A stretch of 64,000 bases of DNA from Actinomycetota bacterium (GCA_046712825.1 JBKKCR010000084.1:2492-66491); one strand, 5' to 3'; counted from the stretch's first letter, positions 5,193 through 62,391 are shown. Notes: a model not told the origin generated them from the letters alone. Numbers and translations: made by a program.

Positions 5193-5203
5193 GGCTCTTG
5201 CGT

Positions 5204-5888: not shown

Positions 5889-5900
5889 CCGGGGCAGGGT

Positions 5901-8080: not shown

Positions 8081-8146
8081 TCGCTCTTGCGCCTCGGCCG
8101 CCGGAGGGGAGAAGGTATCGGGGAGGCTCGAGCCGGGAGGGAGACC

Positions 8147-32669: not shown

Positions 32670-32829
32670 CAGCGGCCCCCGGGGCGACGACGTTTCCCCT
32701 ATCTTTGACGGGAAAACCCCGGATACGCTGCGACTTCATCCGAGGTTCGAGAGAAACTATGACCCCGCCGGAGGTCGCTCGTCAAGTCGTTTGCCCGGTA
32801 ATAACAGTGCAAACCCGGTCGGCGACGCC

Positions 32830-37098: not shown

Positions 37099-37172
37099 GG
37101 GCCCGTAGCTCAATCGGTTAGAGCACCGGACTCATAATCCGTTGGTTCCTGGTTCGAGACCAGGCGGGCCCA
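37099..37172 (+). tRNA. tRNA-Met (anticodon CAU), elongator-type (or possibly Ile2, which needs lysidine modification)
   Basis: Manual cloverleaf: acceptor GGGCCCG/CGGGCCC, D-arm GCTC...GAGC, anticodon loop CTCATAA, T-arm CCTGG-TTCGAGA-CCAGG. The 1-72 pair is intact, so it is not an initiator. No encoded CCA. Confidence 0.85.
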
Positions 37173-37176
37173 CACG

Positions 37177-44738: not shown

Positions 44739-47700
44739 TTGTCGGCCAGGTGGGCGCAGGCGATGTCTTTCGGAGAGACCGGCGAGAGCCCCGGAAGGGC
44801 TCCCTCGTTGTTTAGACTCCTTGGGCCGATGAACTGCCCGTCCTGCACGGCAACGAACCCCGACGACGCTTCCTTCTGCGGGAGCTGCGGGACGCCGCTC
44901 GCACCCGAAGGCCCCTGTCCGCGGTGCAACCGGACGAATCCACTCGATCTGAAGTTCTGCCGGGGATGCGGGTACCGGCTCGGCGCCGCCGAGCCTGCAC
45001 GGCAACCCAGTCTTCCCTCCGCGTTCGCGGGAGGCCGGTACAAGGTCGAGCGCTTCCTCGGCGAGGGGGGCCGCAAGCGGGTGTTCCTCGCTCACGACTC
45101 GCGACTCGAGCGCGACGTCGCGCTGGCGCTCATCAAGACCGAGGGGCTCGACCAATCCGGGCTCGACCGGGTCCGCTTCGAGGCGCAGGCGATGGCCCGC
45201 CTCGGGGACCATCAGAACATCGTGACCGTCTTCGACGTGGTGGAGGAGGACGGCTCTATGTATCTGGTGTGTCAGTACATGAGCGGCGGATCGGTTGAAG
45301 ATCTCATCGCCGCCGCGGACGGCCGCGGGCTGCCCTTGGAAGACACGGTGCGCATCGGCGGCCAGGTCGCGCACGCCCTCGAGCACGCGCACGGCCGTGG
45401 CGTCGTCCACCGGGATGTGAAGCCGGGGAACGTTTGGCTCCAAGAGAACGGCAGCGCACGTCTGGGCGACTTCGGGCTCGCGGTCGCCCTCGACCGATCG
45501 CGGCTCACCGCGGAGGGCATGATGCTCGGCACCGTCGCGTACATGGCGCCGGAGCAAGCCATGGGGCGGCCCCCCGACGCCCGGAGCGACCTGTATTCGC
45601 TCGGCGCGATGCTCTACGAGATGCTGACCGGACGTCCGCCGTTCCTCGGCGACGAAGCCGTCGCGATCATCTCGCAGCACATCGGTACCGCTCCGGTCGC
45701 GCCGTCGTGGCACACCCCCGACGTACCACCGGCCCTCGAGCGGTTGGTGCTGGGATTGCTCGCGAAGGATCCCGAGAAGCGGCTCCAGTCGGCGACCGAG
45801 GTCCGCGACGCGCTCGTCAAGATCGCGACGGCCACCACCACGGCCGGTCCATCCGCCGCGGCGCGCGAGGAGGCGAACCCGCTCGACCGGCTCGCCGGCG
45901 GCGTCTTCGTCGGGCGCGAACGAGAGATGGACGATCTACGCGCCGGCTTGGACGACGCGCTCTCGGGTCGAGGACGTCTCTTGCTCCTCATGGGAGAGCC
46001 GGGGATCGGCAAGACGCGCATGGCCGACGAGCTCACCACCTACGCCAGGTTGCGCGGCGCGCAGGTCTTGGTGGGTCGCTGCTACGAAGGCGAAGGCGCG
46101 CCGGCGTACTGGCCGTGGGTCCAGGTGATCCGCGCGTTCATCCACGACCGCGACGCCGCGGCGCTCACGTCGGTCATGGGCACCGGCGCGCCGGAGATCG
46201 CCCAGATCGTTTCGGACGTTCGCGAACGGATCCCGGACCTGCCCGAGCCGCCGGCGCTCGACCCAGAGCAAGCCCGGTTCCGCCTCTTCGATGCGATCGC
46301 AACGTTCCTCAAGAGCGCCTCCCGCGCGCAGCCGCTCGTGATCGTGCTCGACGACCTGCATTGGGCCGACAAGCCGACGCTGCTATTGCTCCAATTCCTC
46401 GCGCGAGAGCTGCGCTCGAGCAGGCTGCTGGTGCTCGGCACCTATCGGGATGTGGAGCTCCGGCGCCAGCATCCGCTGGCTCAGGCACTCGCCGAGCTCG
46501 CCCGCGAGCAGGTGAGCCAGCGGGTGATATTGCGAGGGCTCATGGTGGACGACGTAGCGCGCTTCATCGAGATGACGTGCGGCGTGCAACCCCCGCCCGA
46601 GCTCGTTCGAGCGGTTCACCGCGAGACGGAGGGAAACCCGTTCTTCGTCGCGGAGATCGTGCGTCTCCTCGCCAGCGAAGGGAAATTCGAGGATCCCGGG
46701 GAGAGCTCGTGGAGTCTGAGCATCCCTCAGAGCGTGCGGGAGGTGATCGGCCGCCGGCTCGATCAGCTCTCGGAGAAGACCAACGCGCTGCTGTCTATCG
46801 CTGCCGTCGCCGGGCGCGAGTTTCCGCTCGGGGTCGTTCAAGCGGTGAGCGACCTCGATCCGGCATCGGTGATGGACGCGGTCGACGAGGCACGCGCCGC
46901 TCGTGTGATCGGAGAGGCGCCTCGATCGGTTGATCGTTACATCTTCTCGCACGCGTTGATCCGCGAGACCTTGTACGAGGAGATCCCGACGACGCGCCGC
47001 GTGATGCTCCATCGGCGGATGGGTGAGACGCTCGAGATGCTGTACGGGGAACGCAACACCGCGAATCTTTCGGAGCTTGCTTACCACTTCCTCGAGGCCG
47101 CTCCGGGCGGGGACGTCGGCAAGGCCATCGACTACGCGAGCGCCGCGGCGAAGCGTGCGACCGAGCTTCTCGCCTACGAGGAAGCGGCGCGTCACTACCA
47201 GAGGGCCATCGAGGCGATGTCGCTGCTCGAAACGCCCGACGAGGCTCTGCGGTGCCGGTTCTTGCTGGCGCTCGGCGACGCGCAGCGACGGTCCGGCGAC
47301 GTCGACGCCGCCCGAGCGGCCTTCTTCGACGCGGCAGCCCGCTCTCGCAAGATCGGCGACGCACCCTCCCTCGCCGAAGCGGCGATCGGCTTGCAAGCCG
47401 GTGCCGCGTTCGGTCAGGTGGACGAGAAGCGAGTGGTGATCCTCGAGCAGGCGATCGAGGCGATCGGCGAAAACGATCTCGCGCTCCGTTCTCGTCTCCT
47501 CGGCCACCTGGCTCGCGCGCTGTACTTCTCCGACGATTTCGAGCCCGTGCGCGCGTTGGGCGATCAGACTGTGGCCGTGGCCGAGTCGGCCGATGATCCG
47601 GTGGCGCTCGCCGAGGCGCTCAGTACTCGCGCGTACGTCTTGTGGGCGGTCGAGCCGCCTGAGGCTCGTGAGGCGGCCGGCGGCAGGATCGCCGACATCG

Positions 47701-49223
47701 CTCGCCGCGTCGGTGATGTCGAGCTCGAGCTGGACGGGTTGATGTGGCGGATCATCGCGTTCACCGATATGGGTGACCTCGCCCGCTCGAAGGCGGCGAT
47801 CGACGAATACACCCGAGTTGCGGAGGCGTCCCACATCCCCCGGTACCGGCTGTACGCCCTCTCCCGACAAGCGATGCTCGCCTCCGTTTTCGGACGCTTC
47901 GAGGAGGCGGAACGGCTCTCACTCGAGGCGTTCCGGATCGGCACCAACGCACAGGAGCCGGACGCCATCCAAGTGCGGGCTGGACAGGCATTCGCCAACG
48001 CCTTCGCCACCGGGAACCGTGAGACCATGGCCTGGTCCCAGCAGTCGCTCAAGACCTATGCGGCGACGTACTCAGCCCGGCAACCCTGGACGCGCGTGTT
48101 CGTGTCCCTGGGCGCCTACAGACTCGGCGACACCGCCGAGGCGGTCCGGGAGTTCGACAGAGCCTTCGCCGAAGGTTTGGTGACCCTTCCCGCGCAAGGC
48201 GTGTCGTCCGGGATGATGCTCGCGACGGCGGCCGTGCTCTGCGGACTCTTGGATCGACCCGAAGAGGCGGAGCAGATCGAACCGCTGATCCGGCCCTTCG
48301 AGAAGCGGGTGATCATGGGGGCAGGCGCTGTGTTCTGCAACGGGGTGGGCGCCCGCTATCTCGGGATCCTCGCGACGGTTCGCGGACGTTACGACGAGGC
48401 CGACCGGTTCTTCCGTTGGGGGGTTGATCGTTGCCGGTCGATGGGCGCGCGGCCCTGGGTAGCCGAGATCCTTCACGATCACGCCACGATGCTGCTTGCC
48501 CGCCGCGGGGCCGGCGACGTGGACGAGGCGATTCGCCACCTGGACGGGGCCCTGGAGATAGCGAAAGAGCTCGGGATGTCGCCGCTCGCCGAACGAGCTC
48601 TCCAGCAGAAGATGAGCGCGCAAGGCATGGTGCTCCCCACCGACATCAAGAGCTCGATCGACCGTGTCGCCTCATCGTTGGAGCGCGAACGCCCGAACCT
48701 TCGCAGCCACGCGGCACCGGACGGCACGGTTACCTTGCTCTTCACCGACATCGAGGGTTCCACCGCACTGAACGAACAGGTCGGCGACCGGCGGTGGATC
48801 GAGTTGCTCCGCATGCACAACGCGATCGTGCGCGAGCAGGTCGCCGCGCAGGGTGGGTTCGAGGTGAAATCCTCGGGCGACGGATTCATGGTCGCGTTCT
48901 CCTCGGCGCGACGTGCGGTCGCTTGCGCGGTCGAGGTCCAACGCGCGCTCGCCGAGCACGCGGACAAGGCTCCCGACGACGGGATCCGTGTGCGCATCGG
49001 CTTGCACACCGGTGAGGCGATCGCGGAGGAGGGCGACTTCTACGGACGACACGTCAACCTCGCGGCCCGGGTCGGCGCCGCGGCCGAGGGAGGCGAGATC
49101 CTCGTTTCATCCTTGCTGCGAGAGCTCACGGCCTCCAGCAAAGAGTTCGAGTTCGGCGAGGCGCGCGACGTTCAGCTCAAAGGCCTTACCGGCACGCATC
49201 GGCTCTACCCGGTGAGGTGGTGA
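44739..49223 (+). CDS. multidomain signalling protein: double zinc-ribbon, Ser/Thr protein kinase, STAND/AAA NTPase, TPR-like region, C-terminal class III adenylate/guanylate cyclase (1494 aa)
   Basis: N-terminal CPSC...CGSC and CPRC...CRGC. Kinase motifs HRDVKPGN, DFG and APE. P-loop GEPGIGKTRMA with hhhhDD Walker B (LVIVLDDLHW). Long helical TPR-like middle region. C-terminal cyclase (VTLLFTDIEGSTAL, GDGFMVAF, RVRIGLHTGEA). An alternative start at ATG 44829 (MNCPSC) is possible. Confidence 0.9.
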   Translation: MSARWAQAMSFGETGESPGRAPSLFRLLGPMNCPSCTATNPDDASFCGSCGTPLAPEGPCPRCNRTNPLDLKFCRGCGYRLGAAEPARQPSLPSAFAGGRYKVERFLGEGGRKRVFLAHDSRLERDVALALIKTEGLDQSGLDRVRFEAQAMARLGDHQNIVTVFDVVEEDGSMYLVCQYMSGGSVEDLIAAADGRGLPLEDTVRIGGQVAHALEHAHGRGVVHRDVKPGNVWLQENGSARLGDFGLAVALDRSRLTAEGMMLGTVAYMAPEQAMGRPPDARSDLYSLGAMLYEMLTGRPPFLGDEAVAIISQHIGTAPVAPSWHTPDVPPALERLVLGLLAKDPEKRLQSATEVRDALVKIATATTTAGPSAAAREEANPLDRLAGGVFVGREREMDDLRAGLDDALSGRGRLLLLMGEPGIGKTRMADELTTYARLRGAQVLVGRCYEGEGAPAYWPWVQVIRAFIHDRDAAALTSVMGTGAPEIAQIVSDVRERIPDLPEPPALDPEQARFRLFDAIATFLKSASRAQPLVIVLDDLHWADKPTLLLLQFLARELRSSRLLVLGTYRDVELRRQHPLAQALAELAREQVSQRVILRGLMVDDVARFIEMTCGVQPPPELVRAVHRETEGNPFFVAEIVRLLASEGKFEDPGESSWSLSIPQSVREVIGRRLDQLSEKTNALLSIAAVAGREFPLGVVQAVSDLDPASVMDAVDEARAARVIGEAPRSVDRYIFSHALIRETLYEEIPTTRRVMLHRRMGETLEMLYGERNTANLSELAYHFLEAAPGGDVGKAIDYASAAAKRATELLAYEEAARHYQRAIEAMSLLETPDEALRCRFLLALGDAQRRSGDVDAARAAFFDAAARSRKIGDAPSLAEAAIGLQAGAAFGQVDEKRVVILEQAIEAIGENDLALRSRLLGHLARALYFSDDFEPVRALGDQTVAVAESADDPVALAEALSTRAYVLWAVEPPEAREAAGGRIADIARRVGDVELELDGLMWRIIAFTDMGDLARSKAAIDEYTRVAEASHIPRYRLYALSRQAMLASVFGRFEEAERLSLEAFRIGTNAQEPDAIQVRAGQAFANAFATGNRETMAWSQQSLKTYAATYSARQPWTRVFVSLGAYRLGDTAEAVREFDRAFAEGLVTLPAQGVSSGMMLATAAVLCGLLDRPEEAEQIEPLIRPFEKRVIMGAGAVFCNGVGARYLGILATVRGRYDEADRFFRWGVDRCRSMGARPWVAEILHDHATMLLARRGAGDVDEAIRHLDGALEIAKELGMSPLAERALQQKMSAQGMVLPTDIKSSIDRVASSLERERPNLRSHAAPDGTVTLLFTDIEGSTALNEQVGDRRWIELLRMHNAIVREQVAAQGGFEVKSSGDGFMVAFSSARRAVACAVEVQRALAEHADKAPDDGIRVRIGLHTGEAIAEEGDFYGRHVNLAARVGAAAEGGEILVSSLLRELTASSKEFEFGEARDVQLKGLTGTHRLYPVRW

Positions 49224-49882
49224 TGACCCAGGGCTTCGTCGCCGCGCTGGAGCCGGGCGACCTCGAGGCGCTGACGGCGTGGGGACGCGCGCGGCGTTTC
49301 CGTCGCGGAGCGATCCTCTTCCACGAAGGCGAAGGTGCCGAGCACGTCCTCATCGTTCGAGCCGGCCGCGTGAAAGTTTCGAGCTTCACCGCCGACGGCA
49401 GGGAGGTGGTCCTCGCGGTTCGCGGGCCCGGCGAGCTGCTCGGGGAGCTCTCCGCTATCGATGGTGAGCCGCGTTCGGCCTCGGCGAGCGCGCTCGAGCA
49501 GGTCGACGTGCTGAGCGTGCCGGCCGAAGACTTCCGCGCCTTCCTGGAGATGCGTCCGCGCGTCACCGTATCGCTCATGCAGATGCTCTCCCGGAAGCTC
49601 CGCGACGCCGACCGGAAACGCATCGAGTTCGGCGCGCACGACACCGTTGGGCGCGTTTGCCACCGGCTGGTCGAGCTCGCAGAGCGTTTCGGAGAAGAGT
49701 CCACGCGCGGGCTCCGCATCACGCTCCCGCTGTCGCAGCAAGAGCTCGCCGGATGGACCGGCGCGTCCAGGGAGGCCGTGAGCAAGGCGCTCCACCAGCT
49801 CCGATCGCGCGGCTACATCGAGACCGCGCGCCGCGGGATCACCGTCCTCGACATGCCGGCGCTCCGTCGCCGCGCGATGTGA
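49217..49882 (+). CDS. Crp/Fnr family transcriptional regulator (cNMP-binding domain plus HTH)
   Basis: cNMP-binding beta-roll (ILFHEGEGAEHVLIVRAGRVKV...GELLGELSAIDGEPRSASA) and C-terminal HTH (LSQQELAGWTGASREAVSKALHQLRSRGYI). Start GTG 49217 or ATG 49220 overlaps the kinase-cyclase stop. Confidence 0.85.
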   Translation: MVMTQGFVAALEPGDLEALTAWGRARRFRRGAILFHEGEGAEHVLIVRAGRVKVSSFTADGREVVLAVRGPGELLGELSAIDGEPRSASASALEQVDVLSVPAEDFRAFLEMRPRVTVSLMQMLSRKLRDADRKRIEFGAHDTVGRVCHRLVELAERFGEESTRGLRITLPLSQQELAGWTGASREAVSKALHQLRSRGYIETARRGITVLDMPALRRRAM

Positions 49883-49895
49883 AGGGAGACCATCG

Positions 49896-50603
49896 ATGGC
49901 AGAGCTCGGCACGATCCTCGGCGTCTGGGCGCATCCCGACGACGAGACGTACCTGACCGCCGGGCTCATGGCTCGAGCGGCGGACGACGGCGATCGGGTC
50001 GTGTGCGTGACGGCGACGAAGGGCGAAGGCGGCTCCTGGGACGAGAAGCGCTGGCCGTCGGAGACGATGGGCCGGGTGCGAGACGCCGAGCTGATGGAGT
50101 CGCTGCGCATCCTCGGCGTGAAGGAGCACCACTGGCTCGGCTACATCGACGGTTCGTGCGCTGATGTTCCTCCCGAGGAAGCTACGGCGAAGGTGCAAGC
50201 GATCATGGAAGAGGTGTCACCGGACTCCGTCTTCACGTTCGGGCCCGACGGGATGACCGATCACGCCGATCACAAGGCCGTCTGCGCCTGGACGACTGAG
50301 GCCTTCCGACGCTCGGGGAAGCCGGGGGCGAAGCTCTATTACGCGACGACCACCAAGGAGTGGGCGGAGGAGTTCGTTCCTCGCATGAACAAATTCAATG
50401 TGTTCGCTCCCGGATTGCCGCCGGTCAGTCCGCCGGACGAGCTGGCGATCGACTTCGCGCTCGATCCCGACCTGATGGACCGCAAGCTGCAGGCGATCGA
50501 GGCGCACGTGTCGCAGGTCGAGTACATGCTTCGCTACTTCGGCGCAGACTTCTTCCGTGAGGCGCACAAGATCGAGCTGTTCCGGCTCGCAGAGTCTCGG
50601 TGA
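49896..50603 (+). CDS. PIG-L family (LmbE-like) N-acetylglucosaminyl deacetylase
   Basis: VWAHPDDE and HxDH (DHADH) motifs. Confidence 0.85.
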   Translation: MAELGTILGVWAHPDDETYLTAGLMARAADDGDRVVCVTATKGEGGSWDEKRWPSETMGRVRDAELMESLRILGVKEHHWLGYIDGSCADVPPEEATAKVQAIMEEVSPDSVFTFGPDGMTDHADHKAVCAWTTEAFRRSGKPGAKLYYATTTKEWAEEFVPRMNKFNVFAPGLPPVSPPDELAIDFALDPDLMDRKLQAIEAHVSQVEYMLRYFGADFFREAHKIELFRLAESR

Positions 50604-50641
50604 GCGTGGGTTGGGCTCGGACTGGGTAGGGGAACGAGGTT

Positions 50642-52042
50642 ATGCCTAGGAAGCGCCGACCCCCGCCGGAGGAGACCGTCGCGAGCGAGTTCTCCGCCGA
50701 GCTCGAGCCGCACATAGGCGAGCTCGACGGGGTCGAGATCATCTGCGGGATCCCATCGTTCAACAACGTCCGAACGATCCCCAACGTCGTCCGCGCCGTA
50801 GAGGCCGGGCTGCGCCGGGCCTTCCCCGGCGTCTCGGCCGCCATCGTCGTGTCGGACGGCGGATCCGAGGACGGCACCGTCGCTGCCGCGATGGAAGCAT
50901 CGACCGGTCCCGACGAAGAGTTCCTGCTGATCGATCCGAAGGCGCCTTCGCCGAAGCGGCTCGCCCTCCGGTACCGCGGGATCTCCGGGAAGGGAAGCGC
51001 GTTCCGGACGCTGTTCTCCGTCGTCGAGACGGTCGGCGCCCGGGCGTGCGCCGTCTTCGACTCGGATCTCCGCTCGATCACGCCGCAGTGGGTCGAGTCG
51101 CTGTTGCGGCCGGTGCTCGTGAACGGACACGACTTCGTCGCGCCGATGTACGCGCGCCACAAGTACGACGGAACGATAACCAACGCGATCGCGTTCCCAC
51201 TGACGTCCGCGCTCTACGGGTCGCTCGTCCGCCAGCCGATCGGCGGAGAGTTCGGCTTCTCAGGCCGGATGGCCGCGAGCTGGGCGCACCGCGACGTCTG
51301 GGGCACCGACGTCGCCCGGTACGGCATCGACATCTGGATGACCACGACGGCGATCGTCGAAGGCTTCCGCGTTTGTCAGACGCAGCTGGGCGCGAAGGTC
51401 CACGATGCGAAAGACCCCGGGACGCATCTCGGCCCGATGTTCCGGCAAGTCGTCGGATCGCTGTTCGCCCTCGCCGGCCGGTACTCCGACCGATGGAGCG
51501 ACGTCGAGGACATGACGCCGGTCCCCACGTATGGCTTCCGCGCCGCGACGTCGGCCGAGGAGATCCGCATCAAGGCCGGGCGGCTCACCTGGCGCTTCAT
51601 CGAGGGATACATGAAGTACGAGAAACTCTGGCGCGACGTCCTTTCGGCCGAGACGCTCAACGCGGTGGTGCGGGCGACGGACGAAGCCGCCGAGAAGACC
51701 GAGGGTTTCGTGCTCCCAGCCGACCTGTGGGCGCACATCGTCTACGACTACTTGGTAGCGTTCAGTGCCGCGGAGTTCGACTCGTCGGTGCTTCTAGACT
51801 CGATGATCCCGCTTTACTTCGCACGGACGGCGACGTTCGTGCAGGAAGCCTCCGGCGACGATCAGTACGCGGCTGAGGAGCGTATAGGCCGGTACGCCGA
51901 CCTCTTCCTCGAACGCAAGCCCTATCTGCTCCGCCGCTGGGCCGAAGCGGGTGTCCAGCGCACCCTCGCCGAGCAGACGGTTCCGCCTGCGGGCATCGAG
52001 GCGTCGGAAACCTCGGAGATGCTCGGCGCCCAGTCCGACTGA
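50642..52042 (+). CDS. GT-A fold glycosyltransferase, mannosylglycerate-synthase (GT78)-like with C-terminal helical domain
   Basis: IICGIPSFNN...VVSDGGSEDGT, DSDL (DxD), and HDFVAPMYARHKYDGTITNAI resembling the MGS segment VRHYFPRASTDAMIT. Similarity judged from memory of MGS. Confidence 0.7.
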   Translation: MPRKRRPPPEETVASEFSAELEPHIGELDGVEIICGIPSFNNVRTIPNVVRAVEAGLRRAFPGVSAAIVVSDGGSEDGTVAAAMEASTGPDEEFLLIDPKAPSPKRLALRYRGISGKGSAFRTLFSVVETVGARACAVFDSDLRSITPQWVESLLRPVLVNGHDFVAPMYARHKYDGTITNAIAFPLTSALYGSLVRQPIGGEFGFSGRMAASWAHRDVWGTDVARYGIDIWMTTTAIVEGFRVCQTQLGAKVHDAKDPGTHLGPMFRQVVGSLFALAGRYSDRWSDVEDMTPVPTYGFRAATSAEEIRIKAGRLTWRFIEGYMKYEKLWRDVLSAETLNAVVRATDEAAEKTEGFVLPADLWAHIVYDYLVAFSAAEFDSSVLLDSMIPLYFARTATFVQEASGDDQYAAEERIGRYADLFLERKPYLLRRWAEAGVQRTLAEQTVPPAGIEASETSEMLGAQSD

Positions 52043-52109
52043 GCGCTACGCTTCGTCCAGCTCGGTTGTGACCAACCGGGCGGATCGCTTCCCCTGTGAG
52101 GAGGTCCGG

Positions 52110-52808
52110 ATGCGACGGCTCGTTCTCTGTGCGCTGGTCGTCGGCCTCCTGATCGGGGCAGATCCTTTGGCCGCCTCAGCCAACGACCCACCCATTGCAC
52201 AAGGGACCGGTGACATCACGCGGTCGGTCGACGAACTATGGGCAGATGTCGGCAAGATAGTCCCCGAATTCGGAGGGTTCTTCTACAGCCAGGAACAGCG
52301 CGCATTGAAGATCTATGTAACCGCACAGCGGCCGGGTATTGCGGAAGACCTGAGGGCCGCGCTCGAGAGTGTTTTCAAGTCGAACCTCGACGGCCAGTCT
52401 CTCGACAACATCGTCCTGCTCGAGGGGCGCTACGGCATGCTGCAGCTCATAGAGTGGCGCGATCGCATGCGCCGGGGAAGCATGATGTCGGTGCGTTGCG
52501 TGACCTCGATCGGATTCGCGGAACCCGAGAATAGGCTGCGCGTCAGAGTTGAGGGATTGGGCGCGAAACCACTTGTTGAGAGCAAGCTCGACGAGCTCGG
52601 CATTCCTCGAGAGGCAGTGATCATCAAGCAAGGCGTCGTACAGTTGCTCGGAGGCACATCCCCGCATCAATCGCCGGATCCTAGATGCGCTGCGCCAAAC
52701 AAGATGGGCGTTGTTTGGTGGGTCGGGGGAGCGGGCGCTCTGATCCTGGCGGCCGGAGTTGCTAGGTTGCTTTTCGCGAGACGTTCAGCGAAGCCTGTGC
52801 TGGCTTAG
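52110..52808 (+). CDS. hypothetical secreted protein with C-terminal membrane anchor, atypical (lower-GC) composition
   Basis: Strong SD (gaggagg) upstream of ATG 52110. Signal peptide LVLCALVVGLLIGADPLAASA and a C-terminal hydrophobic anchor (VVWWVGGAGALILAAGVARLLF). Codon third positions are noticeably A/T-richer than in neighbouring genes. Confidence 0.55.
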   Translation: MRRLVLCALVVGLLIGADPLAASANDPPIAQGTGDITRSVDELWADVGKIVPEFGGFFYSQEQRALKIYVTAQRPGIAEDLRAALESVFKSNLDGQSLDNIVLLEGRYGMLQLIEWRDRMRRGSMMSVRCVTSIGFAEPENRLRVRVEGLGAKPLVESKLDELGIPREAVIIKQGVVQLLGGTSPHQSPDPRCAAPNKMGVVWWVGGAGALILAAGVARLLFARRSAKPVLA

Positions 52809-53854
52809 AGGGTCGCGGCCTGCTCTTCTTCCTCGTCCGTCAAAGCCTTGACGTGCGCCGCGATCTGCTCCATCGGCGGGCGCTCGACCTCGATGCTGTT
52901 GTGGATCTCGATGCCGTCCGGTGAGGGACGCAGCAGTGGCGCGGCAGAGAAATCGATTCCGGAACGCATACGCCCCCGCTCTTCGGCCCGGCGCAGGATC
53001 GTTTTGCCGATCGTGTACGCCATCGGCCCCAGCTCGGCGAGCGACCGATTCCGGTGGATGCGCTCGTCGAGGTCGACCTGCGCCATCGCGTCGAGACCAA
53101 CGGTGTCGAGCAGGTCGATCAGCAGGCCGACTTCCACGCTGTACCCGGTGAAGAACGGCACGCGCTTGAGGACGTCGATGTGGCCGGCGTACTCGCCGGA
53201 CAGCGGCTGGATGAACCCGGACAGCTCGGGGAACAGCGCCGCCAGCATCGGACGGGCGAGGAGCTCGGTGACGCGGCCGCCCTCGTCGGGGATCAGCTCT
53301 TCCCCGCGCGCGATCGGGCGGCGGTAGAAGCCCTTGGTGAAGGAGATCGTCGGGTCGCTCAGGATCGGCGCGACGAGGCGCGTCACGAACCGCGTGGAGA
53401 AATTGCGGATGTCGGAGTCGACCCACACGACGATGTCGCCGGACACAACCGAAAGGCTCCGCCACAACGCTTCGCCCTTGCCGAGCACGACCGGCATCTC
53501 GGGGACGAGGTCGGAGATGTCGTGCACGATCGCGCCGGCCTCGGTCGCGATCTCGGGTGTGCCGTCCTCCGACGAGCAATCGACAACGAGCAACTCATCG
53601 ACGAGACCCGAGCCTTCGATCAGGTGTCGCTTGATCGTCGAGCAGATCGGACCGATCGTGGCAGCTTCGTTGAGCGCGGGAAGCACCACGCTGATGCGCT
53701 CGCCCGACGCGAGCTTGCGGGCGGCGAGCTCGCGGGCGCCCGGCAAGTTGCGCGATCCGAACGTGCGATGCCGGTGCCAGCGTTGCGCCAGGCCCGTGAG
53801 CCAAGGGAACTCGTAGGCTTCGTTCGAACCGGTCACCATGTCGTCCTCCGGCAA
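52805..53854 (-). CDS. gpgS: glucosyl-3-phosphoglycerate synthase (GpgS, GT81)
   Basis: ISVVLPALNEAATIG, DxD (VDSD) and overall collinearity with the mycobacterial GpgS family. Confidence 0.8.
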   Translation of the reverse strand: MPEDDMVTGSNEAYEFPWLTGLAQRWHRHRTFGSRNLPGARELAARKLASGERISVVLPALNEAATIGPICSTIKRHLIEGSGLVDELLVVDCSSEDGTPEIATEAGAIVHDISDLVPEMPVVLGKGEALWRSLSVVSGDIVVWVDSDIRNFSTRFVTRLVAPILSDPTISFTKGFYRRPIARGEELIPDEGGRVTELLARPMLAALFPELSGFIQPLSGEYAGHIDVLKRVPFFTGYSVEVGLLIDLLDTVGLDAMAQVDLDERIHRNRSLAELGPMAYTIGKTILRRAEERGRMRSGIDFSAAPLLRPSPDGIEIHNSIEVERPPMEQIAAHVKALTDEEEEQAATL

Positions 53855-54006
53855 GGCGGGCGGTGCTTGCGCGGCTTATCCCCTCCCTGGGTGATGCCCA
53901 AACTGGCAGCACCCGGGCGAAACGGCGCCTCAGGCTACGAGGAGCTTGCATCGTTGAGCAACGCGACCCACAGAGATACCGACGCTTCACGCGTTGTTAA
54001 TGTTCC

Positions 54007-54774
54007 GTGCAGATGTCGATCGATCACATCGCTTCCTCGGGATTCCAGGCAGGAGCCGATGCATACGAGCGCGCGCGGCCCGGCTACCCACCCGCTGCGG
54101 TCGGCTGGCTCGTAGAGCGGCTACGGATCCGGCCAGATTCTCGGGTTGTGGACCTCGGGGCCGGAACCGGAAAGTTCACCGAGTTGCTCGTGCCGACCGG
54201 CGCTCGCCTGATCGCGCTCGAGCCGGTGGATGCCATGCGCGCGAAGCTCGCCGCGCTGCTGCCCACGGTCACGACCGTGGCCGGTGATGCCGAAGCGATC
54301 CCGCTCGCATCGGGAGCGGCCCGCGCGGTGGTCGCGGCTCAGGCGTTCCATTGGTTCGACGCACCGCGCGCGCTCGCTGAGATCCATCGCGTGCTCGAGC
54401 CCGGCGGCGGTCTGGGGCTCGTGTGGAACGCACGCGACACCTCAGTCGATTGGGTCCGCGAGATGGCCGCGATCGTCGATGAGTACGGTGACGCGATCCG
54501 CCGCCACGAATCGGGGGAGTGGCGAGCCGCGTTCCCCGCGCCCGGCTTCGGACCGCTGGAGGATCGTTCCTTCCCGAACGTGCAGCCGATCGAGCCGGAC
54601 GGGGTTGTGGAGCGCGTTGCGTCCACAAGCTTCATCGCACGGCTTCCGGACGACGAACGAGCGCAGATCCTCGAGCGCATCCGGACGTTGATAGGATCTC
54701 ACCCGCAGACGAAGGGCCGAACGCACATCGACTTCCCGCACACGACGCGCGTCTACGTGTGCGAACGGACCTAG
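54007..54774 (+). CDS. class I SAM-dependent methyltransferase
   Basis: Motif I VVDLGAGTGKFT, acidic post-I loop (IALEP) and motif II (AVVAAQAFHWF). Confidence 0.8.
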   Translation: MQMSIDHIASSGFQAGADAYERARPGYPPAAVGWLVERLRIRPDSRVVDLGAGTGKFTELLVPTGARLIALEPVDAMRAKLAALLPTVTTVAGDAEAIPLASGAARAVVAAQAFHWFDAPRALAEIHRVLEPGGGLGLVWNARDTSVDWVREMAAIVDEYGDAIRRHESGEWRAAFPAPGFGPLEDRSFPNVQPIEPDGVVERVASTSFIARLPDDERAQILERIRTLIGSHPQTKGRTHIDFPHTTRVYVCERT

Positions 54775-55619
54775 AGCTCGATCTCCATCCCCTCATACGC
54801 CAGGACAGGGCCCCCGCCGTTGCCGTTCGCGCCCCAGAGCTCTCCCGCCCTCGAGACGAGCGCCTCGAGGTGGCCGTCGGAGTGGAGCGGGTCGTGGTGG
54901 AACATAACGAGCTGCTTCACCTTCGACACGAGACCGAACGTGACGACGTGCTCCACGCTCGAGTGTCCCCAGCCGACGCGGTCGGCGTATTCCTCCGGCG
55001 TGTACTGCGCGTCGTGGAACAGCACGTCGGCGCCTTCCGCCACGCCGTGTCCGGAGATCCACTCGGGCTCCATCTCTGCGAGGTCCACGCCGAGCGCTGG
55101 TTCGTGGTCGGGGAGATAGGCCAACGTTTTGCCGTTTTCCGTGATGCGGTAGCCGACCGTCGGTCCGCGGTGAGAGATCGGTTGAGCTCGGACCGTCGCA
55201 CCGCCGATCGTGAACTCACCGTCGGGGACGTCGTGGAACTGCGGATGCGACGGGATGTCGGACAGATGCACAGGGAAGAGCGGTGGGGAGAGGTAGCGCG
55301 CGATCCGTTGCTCGAGCGAGCGCAGCGGCGACGGCGGCCCCCACACATGCAGTTCCACGTCGGGGCGCCACAGCGGCGAGAAGAATCCAAGCCCCTCGAG
55401 ATGATCCAAGTGCAGATGCGAAAGGAACAGGTGGATCGTCTTGTCGCGGTCGGGGTCGAGCGAGAGTCCGAACGGGCGGATGCCGGTGCCGGCGTCGAGC
55501 ACCAAGAGCGTGCCGTCCGACAGTCTCACTTCCATACAGGAGGTGTTGCCGCCGTACCGGATCGTCTCCGGCCCAGGCGAAGCGAGCGATCCCCGGCACC
55601 CCCAGATCCGCGCGTGCAT
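54771..55619 (-). CDS. MBL-fold metallo-hydrolase (RNase BN/PhnP-like)
   Basis: HLHLDH (HxHxDH) motif and downstream His/Asp ligands. The N-terminal extension is discarded. Confidence 0.75.
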   Translation of the reverse strand: MHARIWGCRGSLASPGPETIRYGGNTSCMEVRLSDGTLLVLDAGTGIRPFGLSLDPDRDKTIHLFLSHLHLDHLEGLGFFSPLWRPDVELHVWGPPSPLRSLEQRIARYLSPPLFPVHLSDIPSHPQFHDVPDGEFTIGGATVRAQPISHRGPTVGYRITENGKTLAYLPDHEPALGVDLAEMEPEWISGHGVAEGADVLFHDAQYTPEEYADRVGWGHSSVEHVVTFGLVSKVKQLVMFHHDPLHSDGHLEALVSRAGELWGANGNGGGPVLAYEGMEIEL

Positions 55620-55621
55620 CC

Positions 55622-56035
55622 TTACGCCGATCCCTGCGGCTTCTGTTCCCAGAAGATCGCGACGGCGCCGACGAACTCGTTCGCCCTCGCGAAGAGCGGG
55701 AACGCGGTGACGGCTATCTTTCGCTTCTCGTCGTCGAGCCCCGTGATGGTGAACTCCATGTGTCCGGGCTCGAGGTCGCGCATCACCTTCGCAAGGGGAA
55801 GCACGTCGAGTGGGATGGACTCGTCGTTCTCGTCCACCGGCGAGAACATGGTTCCCCATTCCTCGGGAGACAAGGGGCCGGTCTCGGCGAAGCTCCGTCC
55901 GAGGACGTGCTCGGCCGGCTCATTGAAGAAGATGAGGTTCCCCGCCGGGTCGACGACGAACATCGGCGTCGCCGAGTTCGAGGCAAGCTCCCGAGCGAGG
56001 ATCAGAACGAGGTTTCGCTGCTGTGTCTTCTCCAC
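55622..56035 (-). CDS. stand-alone PAS domain protein
   Basis: PAS-like sequence (ATPMFVVDPAGNLIFFNEPAEHVLGRSFAE...). 2 bp downstream of the MBL gene start. Confidence 0.6.
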   Translation of the reverse strand: MEKTQQRNLVLILARELASNSATPMFVVDPAGNLIFFNEPAEHVLGRSFAETGPLSPEEWGTMFSPVDENDESIPLDVLPLAKVMRDLEPGHMEFTITGLDDEKRKIAVTAFPLFARANEFVGAVAIFWEQKPQGSA

Positions 56036-56264: not shown

Positions 56265-57128
56265 ATGAAGGGTTCTCGCAAGTTCGCGGTCGCGCTCGCA
56301 GCAGCAGCTTTGGCCACGATGATCGTGGCGCCGGCGGTATCCAACGCGGGCCTGCTCGGCAAGAGCATCCAATGGAAGACGCTCAAAGCGCCGGCTCCGT
56401 CGTGGTACACGGACGCGCTGCATCAGAAGGTGCTCGCCGCCGGGCCGCGCGGCGTGCCGGTGCCCGCCGAAGCAGCGATCCCGGCGTCCTCGCTGACCTT
56501 CCTCGGGATCCGGCCCGGCCAGCTGATCATCCTCAGCGGTGGCTCTCTTTGCACATCGAACTTCGTGTTCACCAACGGCGCTGGTGAATATTTCATCGGC
56601 ACCGCGGGTCACTGCGGAAACGTGGGCGAGCAGGTCACGATGCTGTATCTCCCCGGTGGTTTGGTCAACATCGGCAACGTCATCCTGAGCACCGGCGACG
56701 CGGGGATCGGTAACGACTTCGCGCTCATCAAGATCAAGCCGGAGCTGTACGGCGACGTGAGCCCGTCGCTCGCGTACTGGGGCGGACCGACCGGCGTGTA
56801 CGGCGGCACCGGTCCCGCGGTTGTTCAGCACGCGGGCTGGGGTCTCGTTGTCGGCACCGGTGGAACACCGCGCGTGGGGCTCGGCCTCGACTGGGGGCCG
56901 AACGCGTGGCGATTCGAAGGCGTGATCACGCCGGGCGACTCGGGGAGCGGCGCGATCGTCCTCGGTGGACAGGCGGCCGGGAACATCACGCACATCGCCG
57001 TCGACGGCAGTCAGTTCCCGCCGGCGTTCATGACCGGTACGTCGATGACGAAGATCTTGCAGATCGCCGGCGGATACCAGCTCGCAACGTGCTCGGCCAT
57101 CCCGTGGCCGTTGCCGGGCTGTCCATAG
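56265..57128 (+). CDS. secreted chymotrypsin-fold (S1) serine protease, paralog 1
   Basis: Signal peptide. Catalytic triad contexts TAGHCGN (His), NDFALI (Asp), GDSGSG (Ser). Conserved Cys pairs. Confidence 0.8.
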   Translation: MKGSRKFAVALAAAALATMIVAPAVSNAGLLGKSIQWKTLKAPAPSWYTDALHQKVLAAGPRGVPVPAEAAIPASSLTFLGIRPGQLIILSGGSLCTSNFVFTNGAGEYFIGTAGHCGNVGEQVTMLYLPGGLVNIGNVILSTGDAGIGNDFALIKIKPELYGDVSPSLAYWGGPTGVYGGTGPAVVQHAGWGLVVGTGGTPRVGLGLDWGPNAWRFEGVITPGDSGSGAIVLGGQAAGNITHIAVDGSQFPPAFMTGTSMTKILQIAGGYQLATCSAIPWPLPGCP

Positions 57129-57255: not shown

Positions 57256-58098
57256 ATGAAGATCGCTCGCCTCGCTTTCGTCGCCGCTCTGGCAACTGCG
57301 CTGGCCGCGCCGGGGATGGGAAGCACCGCTCCGGCTCTGAAAGCCATCCCGCTCTCCGCGCCTGCCCCGTCCTGGTACACGCCCGATCTTCACGCCAAGG
57401 TGCTGGCCTCGGGTGTGGAAGGCGTCGCGCTGCCGGAGTCGGTCACGGTTCCGACGGCGGGGATCGCGTTCCTTGGGATCCGGCCCGGGCAGTTCATCAT
57501 CGTCGGCGGCGGCTCGTTGTGCAGCACGAACTTCGTGTTCCGCAACGGCGCCAACTGGGCGATCGGCACCGCGGGTCACTGCGGCAACGTCGGCGAGCAG
57601 GTGACGATGCTCGCGCTACCGCGCGTTCTGCTCAACATCGGAACCATCACCAAGAGCGTCAACGGCGGACCCGGGAACGACTTCGCGCTGATCTCGATCA
57701 ACCCGGCGCTGAACAGTCTCGTGAGCCCGTCGATGGCCTTCTGGGGCGGCCCGACCGCTAATTATCCCGGGCCGAACGCCCCGCTCCTCGTCCGTCACGT
57801 CGGCTGGGGCGCCGGTATCGGGGCCGGCGGCACGCCGCGTGTCGGTGTCGGCATCGCCTGGTCACCCACGATTTGGCGGTTCTCCGGCGTGATCGTCAAC
57901 GGTGACTCGGGGAGCGGCGCGATCAACGAGAAGAGTAAAGCGATCGGGAACATCACCCACATCCAGGTCGACACGAGGTTCTTGCTCCCGGTGTTCAACA
58001 GTGGAACTGCGATGCCGCGCATCTTGGCGATCGCCGGCCTTCCGCTTGCGACGTGCGGGCCGAGCCCGTGGCCGCTCTACGGCTGTCCAGGCCAGTAG
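57256..58098 (+). CDS. secreted chymotrypsin-fold (S1) serine protease, paralog 2
   Basis: Roughly half of residues identical to paralog 1 by eye (LGIRPGQ.II..GGSLC.TNFVF.NGA...IGTAGHCGNVGEQVTML, GNDFALI, GDSGSGAI, GNITHI). Confidence 0.8.
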   Translation: MKIARLAFVAALATALAAPGMGSTAPALKAIPLSAPAPSWYTPDLHAKVLASGVEGVALPESVTVPTAGIAFLGIRPGQFIIVGGGSLCSTNFVFRNGANWAIGTAGHCGNVGEQVTMLALPRVLLNIGTITKSVNGGPGNDFALISINPALNSLVSPSMAFWGGPTANYPGPNAPLLVRHVGWGAGIGAGGTPRVGVGIAWSPTIWRFSGVIVNGDSGSGAINEKSKAIGNITHIQVDTRFLLPVFNSGTAMPRILAIAGLPLATCGPSPWPLYGCPGQ

Positions 58099-58141: not shown

Positions 58142-59338
58142 TCAGCCGATCAGCGGAAGCAGCGGGTGATCGGCGCCGATGATCGGGCCGGGGTCGACGC
58201 CGAATGCCTGCGACAGAACGCTGCTGTAGACGCTGCCGAGGTGGATGGTCGGCTCGAGGTTGCCGTCGACCAGGGCGGTGAGGTCCGGCTTGGCGCCGTA
58301 TGAGCCGCCGAGCACCCGCGGCCCCATCACGAGGACCGGCATCGACGAGCCGTGGTCGGTGCCGCCGGAGGCGTTCTCGCCGACGCGCCTGCCGAAGTCC
58401 GAGAACGTCACCACGGTTGCGCGATCGGCGATCCCGAGGGTGCCGGCCATGTCGAAGAAGGCCGCGATCGCGGTATCGACTTCCTTCAGTTGCGCCGCGT
58501 GCGCGCCCCGCTGCGTGGTGTGTGTGTCGAAGCCGCCGACCGAGATGAACCCGATCTGGGTTCCGACACCGGCAGCGAACATCTGAGCGATCGTCTTCGC
58601 GGGCGTCATCGGGCCGGCAACGTCGTCGGCAACCTTCGACACCGCCGAGACGGCGTTCGTCATTCGGCTCTGCGCCTCGATGACCTTCGCGTGCATCGAG
58701 CCGTCGGACGATCCCGCCCCGAACGCGGCGAACGCCGCCCGCCGGAGCGCGGCATCGGGCCGGCCCTCGTCGGCGAAGGCGAAATCCGACAGGCTGTTGA
58801 GCGCGACGCCTCCGCCGGCTTCACCGATCAGGGTGCGCGGCAGCCCGGCGGTTCCCACCGCGACGGCGCGCACCGGCCCGTTCGAGGCGCCGTCGGTCGC
58901 GTCGAGATACCGGCCGAGCCAGCCCGTGTGGTACTGCATATCGGGGCCGGCCGTCTCCCAGATGTAGGTTGAGTCGAAGTGCGAGAAGTTCGGCTTCGGA
59001 TAGCCGACGTTGTGCACTATGGCGACTTGGCCCGCGCTCCACATCGCGCTGACTCGCGCCAGCGACTTGTGTAGCGCGAGCCCGCCGCCGATCCCGTACA
59101 GCTCGTCCGGCTTAAGCGCGAGCTGCGGCCGCGCGGCCTTGTACGCGCCGTCGAGATACGGTACGACCGTGTTCAGCCCGTCGTTCCCGCCGCCCAAGAA
59201 GAGCACGAGCAGCAGATGGTCCGGGATCGGGACGGACCCTCCCTCGGCGGCTTCCGCACCGATCGCACTGAACCGCACCCAGAGGGGAGCCGACGAGGCC
59301 AGCGCGACGGCCTTGAGGAATTCCCGGCGGTTCATCAT
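58142..59338 (-). CDS. DUF1501 family protein (sulfatase-like fold) with twin-arginine signal
   Basis: MMNRREFLKAVALASSAP Tat motif and DUF1501-typical GGxDxxN / GxDHG (GGTDHG) motifs. Confidence 0.85.
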   Translation of the reverse strand: MMNRREFLKAVALASSAPLWVRFSAIGAEAAEGGSVPIPDHLLLVLFLGGGNDGLNTVVPYLDGAYKAARPQLALKPDELYGIGGGLALHKSLARVSAMWSAGQVAIVHNVGYPKPNFSHFDSTYIWETAGPDMQYHTGWLGRYLDATDGASNGPVRAVAVGTAGLPRTLIGEAGGGVALNSLSDFAFADEGRPDAALRRAAFAAFGAGSSDGSMHAKVIEAQSRMTNAVSAVSKVADDVAGPMTPAKTIAQMFAAGVGTQIGFISVGGFDTHTTQRGAHAAQLKEVDTAIAAFFDMAGTLGIADRATVVTFSDFGRRVGENASGGTDHGSSMPVLVMGPRVLGGSYGAKPDLTALVDGNLEPTIHLGSVYSSVLSQAFGVDPGPIIGADHPLLPLIG

Positions 59339-60690: not shown

Positions 60691-60848
60691 CTCGAACGCG
60701 TCCGGCTTGCTTCGCCTGAGGGCAGGAGGAATCCTGCCGGGGGCGCAAAGGACAAACTAGGACGATATGTCGATGCATCAGCGCCAGAATCGCTCGAATC
60801 GCCCGGGACCGGGAGGTGTGAGTACCTCGCTCGCCGAAACGCTGGACG

Positions 60849-62389: not shown

Positions 62390-62391
62390 CG

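Follow-up and report, generated by a model that had tools for sequence, protein, structure and literature searches.

We identified in a 64,000-nucleotide stretch of DNA (hereafter the window) a conserved pairing of two glycosyltransferase genes, gpgS and the gene of a 466-aa Ggs-like protein, and we propose, with a probability of about 0.62, that the functional unit of this locus is a two-gene, dual-route module for glucosylglycerate (GG) synthesis. The pairing of GpgS with a Ggs-like transferase is an already known kind of module, and what our comparisons below show directly is the assignment to families, the fold, and the conservation of residues and of gene linkage.

Organization of the locus

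A sequence-only reading of this DNA had described five neighbouring genes; all five ORFs are present where it had placed them, and the peptide that it quoted is genuinely encoded. It had overlooked a further ORF, inserted between the two transferase genes:

49896-50603, plus strand: PIG-L/LmbE-family deacetylase, 235 aa (Pfam PF02585, 108 bits vs cut-off of 28.2)
50642-52042, plus strand: Ggs-like retaining GT-A glycosyltransferase, 466 aa (PF00535, weak, 25.9 bits)
52110-52808, plus strand: ORF inserted between both transferases, 232 aa
52805-53854, minus strand: GpgS (GT81) by family, actinobacterial type, 349 aa (NF010496, 364 bits vs cut-off of 262)
54007-54774, plus strand: class-I SAM methyltransferase, generic (Methyltransf_11, 63 bits)
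54771-55619, minus strand: MBL-fold hydrolase (Lactamase_B_2, PF12706, 65.5 bits)

The 466-aa transferase gene and gpgS are convergent, with the inserted ORF between them, and the methyltransferase gene is divergent from gpgS. Genes for a kinase-cyclase and Crp are located upstream of the PIG-L gene; the host is an uncultured high-GC Actinomycetota. The inserted ORF is not part of the pathway. It is absent from close relatives (L001, L002 and L009), in which both transferase genes are 2-41 nt apart, it has a GC of 0.60 and a GC3 of 0.69 (neighbours, 0.85-0.88), and it has no Pfam or NCBIfam match and only 6 database homologues; the N-terminus of its product resembles a signal peptide, and the C-terminus is hydrophobic.

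The two glycosyltransferases

By family, the gene at 52805-53854 is firmly predicted to encode glucosyl-3-phosphoglycerate synthase, as a member of the GpgS/GT81 family of mycobacteria and Rubrobacter. Its NF010496 match runs from position 5 to position 306 of the 307-position profile and exceeds the curated cut-off for equivalogs, and it matches solved structures in the PDB at 223-241 bits (240.6 bits for R. xylanophilus MpgS/GpgS and 223-224 bits for mycobacterial GpgS), in agreement with the earlier claim that one of the enzymes is clearly GpgS. The translation shows VDSD (DxD), GGRVTEL (G-R-V-T acceptor) and QPLSGEY (QPLSGE donor pocket), motifs whose roles in GpgS have been described (PMC2581804). 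The exact start is uncertain, with TTG at 53854 and an ATG located 5 codons farther downstream as the two candidate start codons.

The 466-aa protein is a distant paralogue of GpgS (the two share 27% identity across 187 aa, and 24% within the GT-A domain) and is a candidate member of the Ggs family (EC 2.4.1.268), as judged from JGI names and gene context. Many of its more than 8000 homologues, in fact, carry the JGI name glucosylglycerate synthase, that of the Persephonella marina and Petrotoga mobilis enzyme; the names probably derive from KEGG orthology and differ even inside one 90% identity cluster. In the protein, the N-terminal catalytic domain covers approximately residues 30-290 and is followed by a helical domain at the C-terminus (approximately residues 310-436), as in the two-domain architecture of mannosylglycerate synthase (MGS), and its closest fold is that of a mannosyltransferase. 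Compared with GpgS, the helical domain is an addition, and Thr178 takes the place of the Arg of G-R-V-T.

The sequence-only reading had called this protein GT78-like; by sequence, it is not a member of GT78. HMM family assignment of 50642-52042 gave the weak PF00535 match listed above and a sub-threshold match to the NCBIfam GpgS model (57 bits vs cut-off of 262, E 1.3e-15), whereas Pfam PF21969 (MGS_GT) gave no match to the window protein even at E<=5. With the profile of its family, GpgS is found at E 8e-10, but an E value of 0.002 is all that is attained with MGS. Among its relatives, P0024 (68% identical) passes PF21969 with 32.4 bits (cut-off of 27), and P0097, with 25.8 bits, stays below the same cut-off. 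Rhodothermus marinus MGS (GT78; PDB 2BO4, 2Y4K) is 15% identical to the 466-aa protein, which is ~70-85 residues longer and whose donor is probably glucose, and not mannose.

Conserved residues of the 466-aa protein

The following motifs were located in the 466-aa protein:

51059-51067, plus strand: DxD motif D140-S-D142 (predicted metal and nucleotide-sugar binding), with D140 and D142 invariant in 91 homologues
51128-51190, plus strand: acceptor-loop segment HDFVAPMYARHKYDGTITNAI, containing R172-H-K-Y-D-G-T-I179-T180-N181
51233-51253, plus strand: Q198-P-I-G-G-E-F204, by alignment the counterpart of the QPL(S/G)GE donor pocket

D140 and D142 align with D100-A-D102 of MGS and with D134-S-D136 of GpgS, the DxD roles of the latter having been described (PMC2581804). 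The acceptor-loop segment, in which RHKxDGTITN is invariant in the 91 homologues, aligns gap-free, through the family relative P0243, with R131-ASTDAM-I138-T139, the glycerate-binding loop of MGS, and the resemblance to MGS noticed in the sequence-only reading is thereby confirmed for this segment. The glycerate carboxylate is bound by I138/T139 in MGS and by V186/T187 in GpgS (PMC2581804). The acceptor loop of the 466-aa protein has the MGS length, without the ~9 residues found before G-R-V-T in GpgS, which fits an unphosphorylated acceptor. The Q198-F204 motif aligns with QPLGGEY of M. hassiacum GpgS and QPLGGEL of MGS, and it is conserved in the 91 homologues; since it served as bait for the metagenome loci, its conservation there mirrors selection.

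K117, D140, D142, R172-HKxDGT-I179-T180-N, D230 and H254 are invariant among the 91 homologues (43-100% identity), and these residues align with MGS K76, D100/D102, R131...I138-T139 and D192, and with GpgS K114, D134/D136, V186-T187 and H258. By alignment, the 466-aa protein has both the retaining GT-A catalytic residues and the glycerate-carboxylate loop. A retaining GT-A enzyme with a glycerate-type acceptor loop is what it probably has in common with P. marina and P. mobilis Ggs.

Conserved pairing with GpgS

A 466-aa homologue and GpgS are adjacent, in varying orientations, in 8 of the 11 genome or long-contig loci, and the pairing recurs in Actinomycetota and Chloroflexota. Of 80 distant metagenome loci, 40 have a Methanococcoides-type GpgS near the homologue; when only the 43 loci flanked on each side by 1.5 kb or more are counted, 27 have it. 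An MPGP-family phosphatase (TIGR01486, 203 bits vs 165) and an MscS-like membrane protein are each found in 36 of the 80 distant loci, and natural fusions occur (GpgS-Ggs-like, Ggs-like-GpgS and Ggs-like-Usp-GpgS). Since the co-location of the two transferases recurs across phyla, with two GpgS types, and as fusions, it is not due to chance. The neighbourhoods of the relatives also contain TrkA/Kdp potassium-uptake genes (with one TrkA_N fusion) and, in Chloroflexota loci, a glycerate kinase. The MPGP-family phosphatase, MscS-like, Trk/Kdp and glycerate kinase contexts fit the general idea, put forward in the sequence-only reading, of a glycerate-based compatible solute.

The cassette of the distant relatives (GpgS, MPGP-family phosphatase and 466-aa-type transferase) resembles the gpgS-gpgP-ggs operon of P. 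marina and P. mobilis. In P. marina, ggs reportedly shares an operon-like unit with gpgS and gpgP, and its Ggs is reported to make GG from ADP-glucose and D-glycerate. The window differs from this operon, as its GpgS is of the actinobacterial (NF010496) and not of the Methanococcoides/Persephonella type (NF040724), its genes are convergent with an unrelated ORF inserted, and no GpgP or MscS-like gene was found near the pair. Regarding the association with gpgS and gpgP, the 466-aa transferase gene has gpgS alone beside it in the window; among the loci of the relatives, GpgS and an MPGP-family phosphatase both occur, in the 40 and 36 of 80 loci given above.

Proposed function

We place the two transferases in a scheme with two routes, in which donor sugar, acceptor and physiological role are inferred. 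In the first, GpgS would move glucose from NDP-glucose to 3-phosphoglycerate, forming glucosyl-3-phosphoglycerate, from which a phosphatase would then strip the phosphate. This route is incomplete locally, because no GpgP-type phosphatase was found in the window parts examined, where glycerate kinase and GG hydrolase were searched for with the same result; the high-GC3 ORFs of the window contain no RHG histidine-phosphatase or HAD motif. In the second route, the 466-aa enzyme would produce GG in a single step from NDP-glucose and free D-glycerate. It would be a retaining, metal-dependent, two-domain GT-A enzyme, as MGS, in which metal and nucleotide-sugar may be bound by D140/D142 and H254, K117 and D230 may constitute the ion-pair network, and the short loop R172...I179-T180 may hold the glycerate carboxylate. 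GG would act as a compatible solute against osmotic or nutrient stress. A single solute would thus be reached by two routes in this organism, as in P. marina and P. mobilis; paired routes of this kind have been described for P. marina, R. marinus and Petrotoga (PMC3736172).

It is, nevertheless, unexpected that the enzymes of two routes that only duplicate each other should be paired almost invariably, and at times fused, as this transferase is with GpgS. Such tight coupling, with operon cassettes in 27 of the 43 well-flanked loci and with fusions in which either partner comes first, is commoner for successive steps than for redundant routes, and the 466-aa enzyme could act after GpgS, transferring a second hexose onto glucosyl-3-phosphoglycerate or GG to give a di-hexosyl-glycerate (such as glucosylglucosylglycerate or mannosylglucosylglycerate), or could form a complex with GpgS. 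In addition, alpha(1-6)glucosyl-glucosylglycerate builds up in P. marina, and no synthase is known to make it, which counts in favour of such a role. We consider it unlikely, however: the R...I-T glycerate-carboxylate motif is kept beside the donor anomeric carbon, as in MGS and GpgS, which predicts glycerate itself as acceptor, and not a glycoside, and the P. marina and Petrotoga Ggs enzymes, in recombinant form, produce GG from D-glycerate. The dual-route precedents mentioned above also speak against it, as does the fact that the mannosylglucosylglycerate (MGG) synthases MggA and MggS, one of which is needed for MGG, are GT4 enzymes (PMC3736172). A pathway (GpgS, MggA/MggS and MggB) to MGG, a solute suggested in the sequence-only reading, is not supported: scanning of the window ORFs at 28.6-64 kb revealed no GT4 domain, and tblastn of the window with one GT4 from the locus of a relative (not MggA itself) gave nothing.

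There is a slim chance that the 466-aa enzyme is instead a functional mannosylglycerate synthase, using GDP-mannose and D-glycerate, and that the locus makes mannosylglycerate besides or in place of GG. Against this stand an MGS identity of only 15%, a catalytic domain nearer to the glucose-specific GpgS (24% identity), the consistent linkage of the family to GpgS-type genes, and not to GT55 MpgS, and the JGI name glucosylglycerate synthase.

Neighbouring genes

The proposed dual-route GG module comprises fewer genes than the five-gene cluster of the sequence-only reading. The co-location of all five is real in the window and in the three close relatives L001, L002 and L009, where PIG-L, methyltransferase and MBL adjoin the 466-aa homologue in the same gene order. 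As this order is kept only where the 466-aa protein is 78-96% identical to that of the window, we attribute the synteny to descent; loci whose protein is 70-75% identical (L006 and L010) no longer show it, and PIG-L, methyltransferase and MBL are beside the homologue in 0 of the 80 distant loci. The cluster is thus reduced to a two-gene module with lineage-specific neighbours: conservation is confined to the transferase pair and does not extend to the five-gene set, and PIG-L, methyltransferase, MBL, kinase-cyclase and Crp are neighbours inherited in one narrow lineage, for which a pathway role is not supported.

PIG-L bears the AHPDDE and HxDH zinc motifs and reaches none of the NCBIfam cut-offs for equivalogs (BshB2, 81 vs 195 bits; MshB, 71 vs 224 bits), its nearest solved structures being diacetylchitobiose deacetylase (46.7 bits) and MshB (38.9 bits). 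The methyltransferase reached no NCBIfam equivalog, and in the PDB its top hit, at 54.8 bits, is a 'Methyltransferase type 11' that is itself uncharacterised. For the MBL hydrolase, the NCBIfam matches are weak and far below the cut-offs (RNase Z, 59 bits; cyclic-nucleotide phosphodiesterase, 39 bits), and the PDB gave no sequence match at E<=1e-5. None of these three proteins matches a function in GG or MGLP synthesis.

The mycobacterial MGLP initiation genes are those of GpgS (Rv1208), GpgP (Rv2419c) and OctT (Rv2418c) and the Rv3030-3032 cluster, and an MGLP-type system requires GpgS and GpgP, an acyltransferase, a GT4 alpha-1,4-glucosyltransferase, GH57 and dedicated O-methyltransferases. 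The window is similar in having GpgS with an adjoining SAM methyltransferase, but the latter is generic and not conserved with the transferase pair, and the window parts examined, with Pfam scans of ORFs at 13.9-27.9 kb and at 28.6-64 kb, yielded neither a GpgP of the histidine-phosphatase type nor an acyltransferase, a GT4 glucosyltransferase or a GH57. With only GpgS and a generic Methyltransf_11 protein present in these parts, an MGLP-type polymethylated glucan system is not supported, and neither is the MGLP-like primer of the earlier reading.

It is highly improbable that PIG-L, both transferases, methyltransferase and MBL constitute one pathway, leading to an MGLP-like methylated glucan primer or to a deacetylated amino-sugar glycerate, since the analogy with the glycosyltransferase-deacetylase pairs MshA/MshB (mycothiol) and BshA/BshB (bacillithiol), the motif-bearing PIG-L that resembles MshB and BshB2, the order kept in the three close relatives and the tight same-strand gaps (13 nt from Crp to PIG-L and 38 nt from PIG-L to the 466-aa transferase gene) are set against the loss of that order in other loci, the pathway genes missing from the scanned parts of the window, and a methyltransferase and MBL that match no characterised sugar-modifying enzyme. 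Given its position 38 nt upstream on the same strand, PIG-L may nevertheless be co-transcribed with the 466-aa transferase gene, and hence be coupled to it in this lineage.

Gene layout

All five ORFs of the cluster proposed in the sequence-only reading (PIG-L deacetylase, GT78-like synthase, GpgS, methyltransferase and MBL hydrolase) are present where it had placed them, and their domains were confirmed by Pfam/NCBIfam; a 232-aa ORF between the convergent Ggs-like and gpgS genes had been overlooked. The window has a GC content of ~67% throughout.

Genes of the cluster (window positions; Ggs, glucosylglycerate synthase; GpgS, glucosyl-3-phosphoglycerate synthase, GT81)
49896-50603 (+): PIG-L deacetylase
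50642-52042 (+): 466-aa glycosyltransferase (Ggs-like)
52110-52808 (+): 232-aa ORF
52805-53854 (-): GpgS
54007-54774 (+): SAM methyltransferase
54771-55619 (-): MBL-fold hydrolase

The 232-aa ORF lies in an insertion at 52046-52808, which separates the stop codons of the two convergent genes by ~765 bp, is missing in three close relatives and has a GC content of 0.60 and a GC3 of 0.69, versus 0.85-0.88 in the adjoining genes. Its product starts with a signal-peptide-like segment and ends in a hydrophobic anchor, and no family match was found in Pfam/NCBIfam; only six homologues were present in a collection of 5.8 billion proteins, one of them a 100% identical NCBI protein.

The two glycosyltransferases

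The gene at 52805-53854 was confirmed as GpgS, as had been proposed: its product matches the NCBIfam equivalog model over the full length (364 bits versus a cut-off of 262) as well as GT81 structures from Rubrobacter xylanophilus (240.6 bits) and mycobacteria (223-224 bits), and contains VDSD, GGRVTEL and QPLSGEY, motifs whose functions in binding metal, acceptor and donor were described for M. tuberculosis GpgS (PMC2581804).

The Ggs-like protein showed a weak GT2 match in Pfam (25.9 bits) and a sub-threshold match to the NCBIfam GpgS model (57 vs 262 bits, E 1.3e-15). Its solved relatives found by sequence are GpgS enzymes only (E 4.5e-8), the central 146 residues gave only weak GpgS matches against the PDB, and identity to the GpgS of the window is 27% over 187 residues. 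A profile of the family (42 members) matched GpgS at E 8e-10 and the Rhodothermus mannosylglycerate synthase (MGS, GT78) at E 0.002; a relative with 68% identity (P0024) passes the Pfam MGS_GT model (32.4 vs 27 bits), as do some other relatives. The peptide HDFVAPMYARHKYDGTITNAI, in which a resemblance to MGS had been noticed, is indeed encoded at 51128-51190, within the Ggs-like gene, and this resemblance stands for the fold, although the window protein itself has no Pfam MGS_GT match at all. The family has the MGS fold, yet its catalytic domain is nearer to GT81 in sequence, and a genome annotation listing a "Glucosylglycerate synthase" places it in GT81 (PMC8790579).

Judging from homology searches, this family is very widespread and very large. 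Each of two seeds returned more than 8000 candidates, a low-GC relative used as seed retrieving only unnamed proteins from Nitrospirota and other MAGs, and a library clustered at 50% identity contained 2141 representatives at E<=1e-3 and 526 at E<=1e-30. The JGI label is "glucosylglycerate synthase" for many homologues and "glycosyltransferase involved in cell wall biosynthesis" for others, both labels being present within a single 90% identity cluster. Most copies now carry the latter label, so that our survey aids annotation, and it also bears on the relationship between GT78 and GT81.

Fold and active site of the Ggs-like protein

An AlphaFold2 model built from the family alignment was confident (pLDDT 86.6, pTM 0.87) and presents a GT-A domain with a helical domain C-terminal to it. 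The residues of the window protein were mapped to MGS via the alignment of a relative, P0243, with MGS, in which the acceptor loop is gap-free.

Residues of the Ggs-like protein and aligned residues of MGS (via P0243)
K117: K76
D140-S-D142: D100-A-D102
R172-HKYDGT-I179-T180: R131-ASTDAM-I138-T139
QPIGGEF: QPLGGEL
YGID230: WGID192

The carboxylate of glycerate or 3-phosphoglycerate is bound by I138/T139 in MGS and V186/T187 in GpgS, the metal ligands are the second aspartate of the DxD motif and a histidine (H217 in MGS, H258 in GpgS), and the lysine forms a conserved ion pair with the acidic residue (PMC2581804). His254 of the Ggs-like protein is the counterpart of the metal-binding histidine. 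The counterparts of these functional residues, H254 included, are invariant across 91 homologues (43-100% identity), and the invariance of RHKxDGTITN in the 80 of them from distant metagenome loci is not a selection artefact, since the motif was not used in finding them. In contrast to GpgS, the Ggs-like protein lacks ~9 residues just N-terminal of the acceptor motif, and it has a threonine where G-R-V-T has its arginine; in the GpgS crystal, the ~9-residue stretch is a disordered loop thought to touch the rest of 3-phosphoglycerate (PMC2581804). From the aligned active-site residues and these loop and arginine differences, we infer that the Ggs-like protein is a metal-dependent, retaining transferase that acts on free glycerate, with the chemistry of MGS and Ggs. 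The proposal that both transferases are glycosyl-glycerate synthases is upheld at the level of the GpgS equivalog match and the aligned residues.

Conservation of the neighbouring genes

The full order PIG-L, transferase, GpgS, methyltransferase, MBL hydrolase and PAS protein is kept in three relatives, whose transferases are 96% (L001), 86% (L009) and 78% (L002) identical to that of the window. In two others (L006 and L010, 70-75% identity), GpgS is the only cluster gene that still adjoins the transferase, in divergent orientation. Three Chloroflexota MAGs (L003-L005, 45-47% identity) have the order transferase, Usp, GpgS, followed in L003 and L004 by a glycerate kinase (TIGR00045, 404 bits), L005 stopping within its GpgS gene; this kinase would tie glycerate phosphorylation to both routes to glucosylglycerate (GG) proposed below. 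The protein encoded between the two genes in L003 and L004 (L004 9299-12419) is a tandem-Usp protein whose reading frame continues into the GpgS start, so that it may be fused with GpgS.

Among the 80 metagenome loci (homologues with 43-61% identity), a Methanococcoides-type GpgS (NF040724-like) is present in 40, and in 27 of the 43 that are flanked by 1.5 kb or more on each side. A HAD phosphatase of the MPGP family (TIGR01486, 203 vs 165 bits) and an MscS-like membrane protein occur in 36 loci each, the commonest order being gpgS, transferase, MscS-like gene, phosphatase. None of the 80 has a PIG-L, methyltransferase or MBL gene beside the homologue. These three genes, kept only in L001, L009 and L002, are neighbours by descent only, and the five-gene extent claimed for the cluster does not hold.

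The cassette of gpgS, Ggs-like, MscS-like and phosphatase genes was found across many uncultured lineages, the contigs having a GC content of 37-73% (L012-L091; for example, L078 4621-7958 and L066 2150-7970). Its MscS-like member (~233 aa, with the MscS N-terminal helix domain) is consistent and unexplained.

In predicted fusions, the transferase domain is combined with a bona fide GpgS domain (397-437 bits), which may come before or after it: Ggs-like-Usp-GpgS (P0245, 1061 aa), GpgS-Ggs-like (P0250, 748 aa) and Ggs-like-GpgS (P0285, 730 aa); a further one is Ggs-like-TrkA_N (P0264, 622 aa). Streptomyces-like relatives without an adjacent GpgS have Trk and Kdp potassium-uptake genes alongside. 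Since the link between transferase and GpgS is kept with two GpgS types, in several orientations and in fusions, it is strong evidence for a shared function, and this link is far tighter than the literature consulted suggests.

Proposed routes to glucosylglycerate

We propose that the locus encodes two routes to GG. In the first, GpgS would make glucosyl-3-phosphoglycerate, from which a phosphatase encoded elsewhere would remove the phosphate; in the second, the Ggs-like enzyme would glycosylate D-glycerate directly. A compatible solute, as had been suggested from the sequence, is the likely product, presumably with a stress-protective role. The analysis shows the family assignments, the fold, the active-site residues and the gene linkage; donor and acceptor, like the stress-protective role, follow from these by inference. 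No MPGP/HAD or histidine-phosphatase GpgP was found in the window by motifs and Pfam (13.9-27.9 and 28.6-64 kb), nor was a glycerate kinase, a GDE/MGH-like GG hydrolase or an MscS-like gene found there. The P. marina ggs gene was reportedly located with gpgS and gpgP by Fernandes et al. in 2007, and its product is said to use ADP-glucose and D-glycerate to form GG. P. marina, R. marinus and Petrotoga are each described as having a pair of routes to the same glycosyl-glycerate solute (PMC3736172). The finding does not amount to a new kind of system. If the proposal is correct, an uncultured soil/sediment actinobacterium can make GG by a phosphorylating and a single-step route, and the pairing, known first from the thermophiles Persephonella and Petrotoga, extends to mesophilic, high-GC lineages.

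The tight coupling to GpgS and the fusions would also suit a Ggs-like enzyme that acts in a step consecutive to GpgS, or in complex with it, which we consider unlikely. Because of the near-obligatory operon linkage with GpgS, the MPGP-type phosphatase and the MscS-like gene and of the repeated fusions in both orders, the enzyme might, more broadly, not be redundant, serving either in a GpgS complex or in a further step (e.g., to a di-hexosyl-glycerate). Alternatively, in this lineage, where the PIG-L and Ggs-like genes are operon-like, the outcome might be a deacetylated amino-sugar glycerate, much as in the opening two steps of mycothiol/bacillithiol synthesis. These readings too seem rather unlikely. 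A mannose donor, conceivable given the MGS-like fold, is improbable in place of the glucose donor of the two-route proposal. Least probable is the five-gene pathway. Its suggested products, mannosylglucosylglycerate (MGG) or an MGLP-like primer, are not supported: MggA and MggS, required for MGG, are GT4 enzymes (PMC3736172), and no GT4 transferase was found in the window (ORFs scanned at 28.6-64 kb); for MGLP, the methyltransferase proved to be generic (Methyltransf_11), and a GpgP-type phosphatase is likewise missing from the window.

The zinc-site motifs are present in the PIG-L protein, which falls below every equivalog cut-off and has diacetylchitobiose deacetylase and MshB as its closest solved structures. 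The MBL hydrolase gave only weak RNase Z and phosphodiesterase-like matches, and a PDB sequence search found no solved relative; with such sub-threshold matches, we did not adopt it as the missing phosphatase or as a cyclic-nucleotide phosphodiesterase.

Signalling genes and other neighbours

The surroundings of the cluster look like a cyclic-nucleotide signalling region.

Genes around the cluster
30160-32735 (-): sulfite reductase and PAPS reductase (sulfate assimilation)
37138-39795 (+): second cyclase-AAA-TPR protein, ~5 kb upstream of the kinase-cyclase
44739-49223 (+): 1494-aa Ser/Thr kinase-AAA-TPR-adenylate/guanylate cyclase
49217-49882 (+): Crp-family cNMP-binding regulator, its start overlapped by the kinase-cyclase gene
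56265-57128 and 57256-58098 (+): tandem pair of paralogous secreted proteins with TAGHCG and GDSGSG motifs
58142-60756 (-): DUF1501/DUF1800 pair
60849-63999 (+): gluconate-2-dehydrogenase-subunit-3-like protein beside a GMC oxidoreductase

The kinase-cyclase/Crp pair lies directly upstream of the PIG-L and Ggs-like genes, and the region at 54771-56035 (-) holds the MBL hydrolase, which weakly matches a model of cyclic-nucleotide phosphodiesterases (39 bits), followed by the small PAS protein. The genes at 30160-32735, 58142-60756 and 60849-63999 are ordinary neighbours. A search of the whole window for TGTGA-N6-TCACA with at most two mismatches retrieved two Crp-type sites, versus 10 expected by chance, and none near the cluster; visible regulation of the cluster by the adjacent Crp was therefore dropped. 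In L001, the kinase-cyclase gene (4100-8581) is split over several frames and called as three genes, which could reflect a pseudogene or assembly indels. For the tandem secreted proteins, no Pfam family is on record and a direct scan of 56265-57128 was empty; cross-matches on L001 indicate that they are ~57-59% identical, and their TAGHCG and GDSGSG motifs are typical of chymotrypsin-fold (S1) serine proteases.
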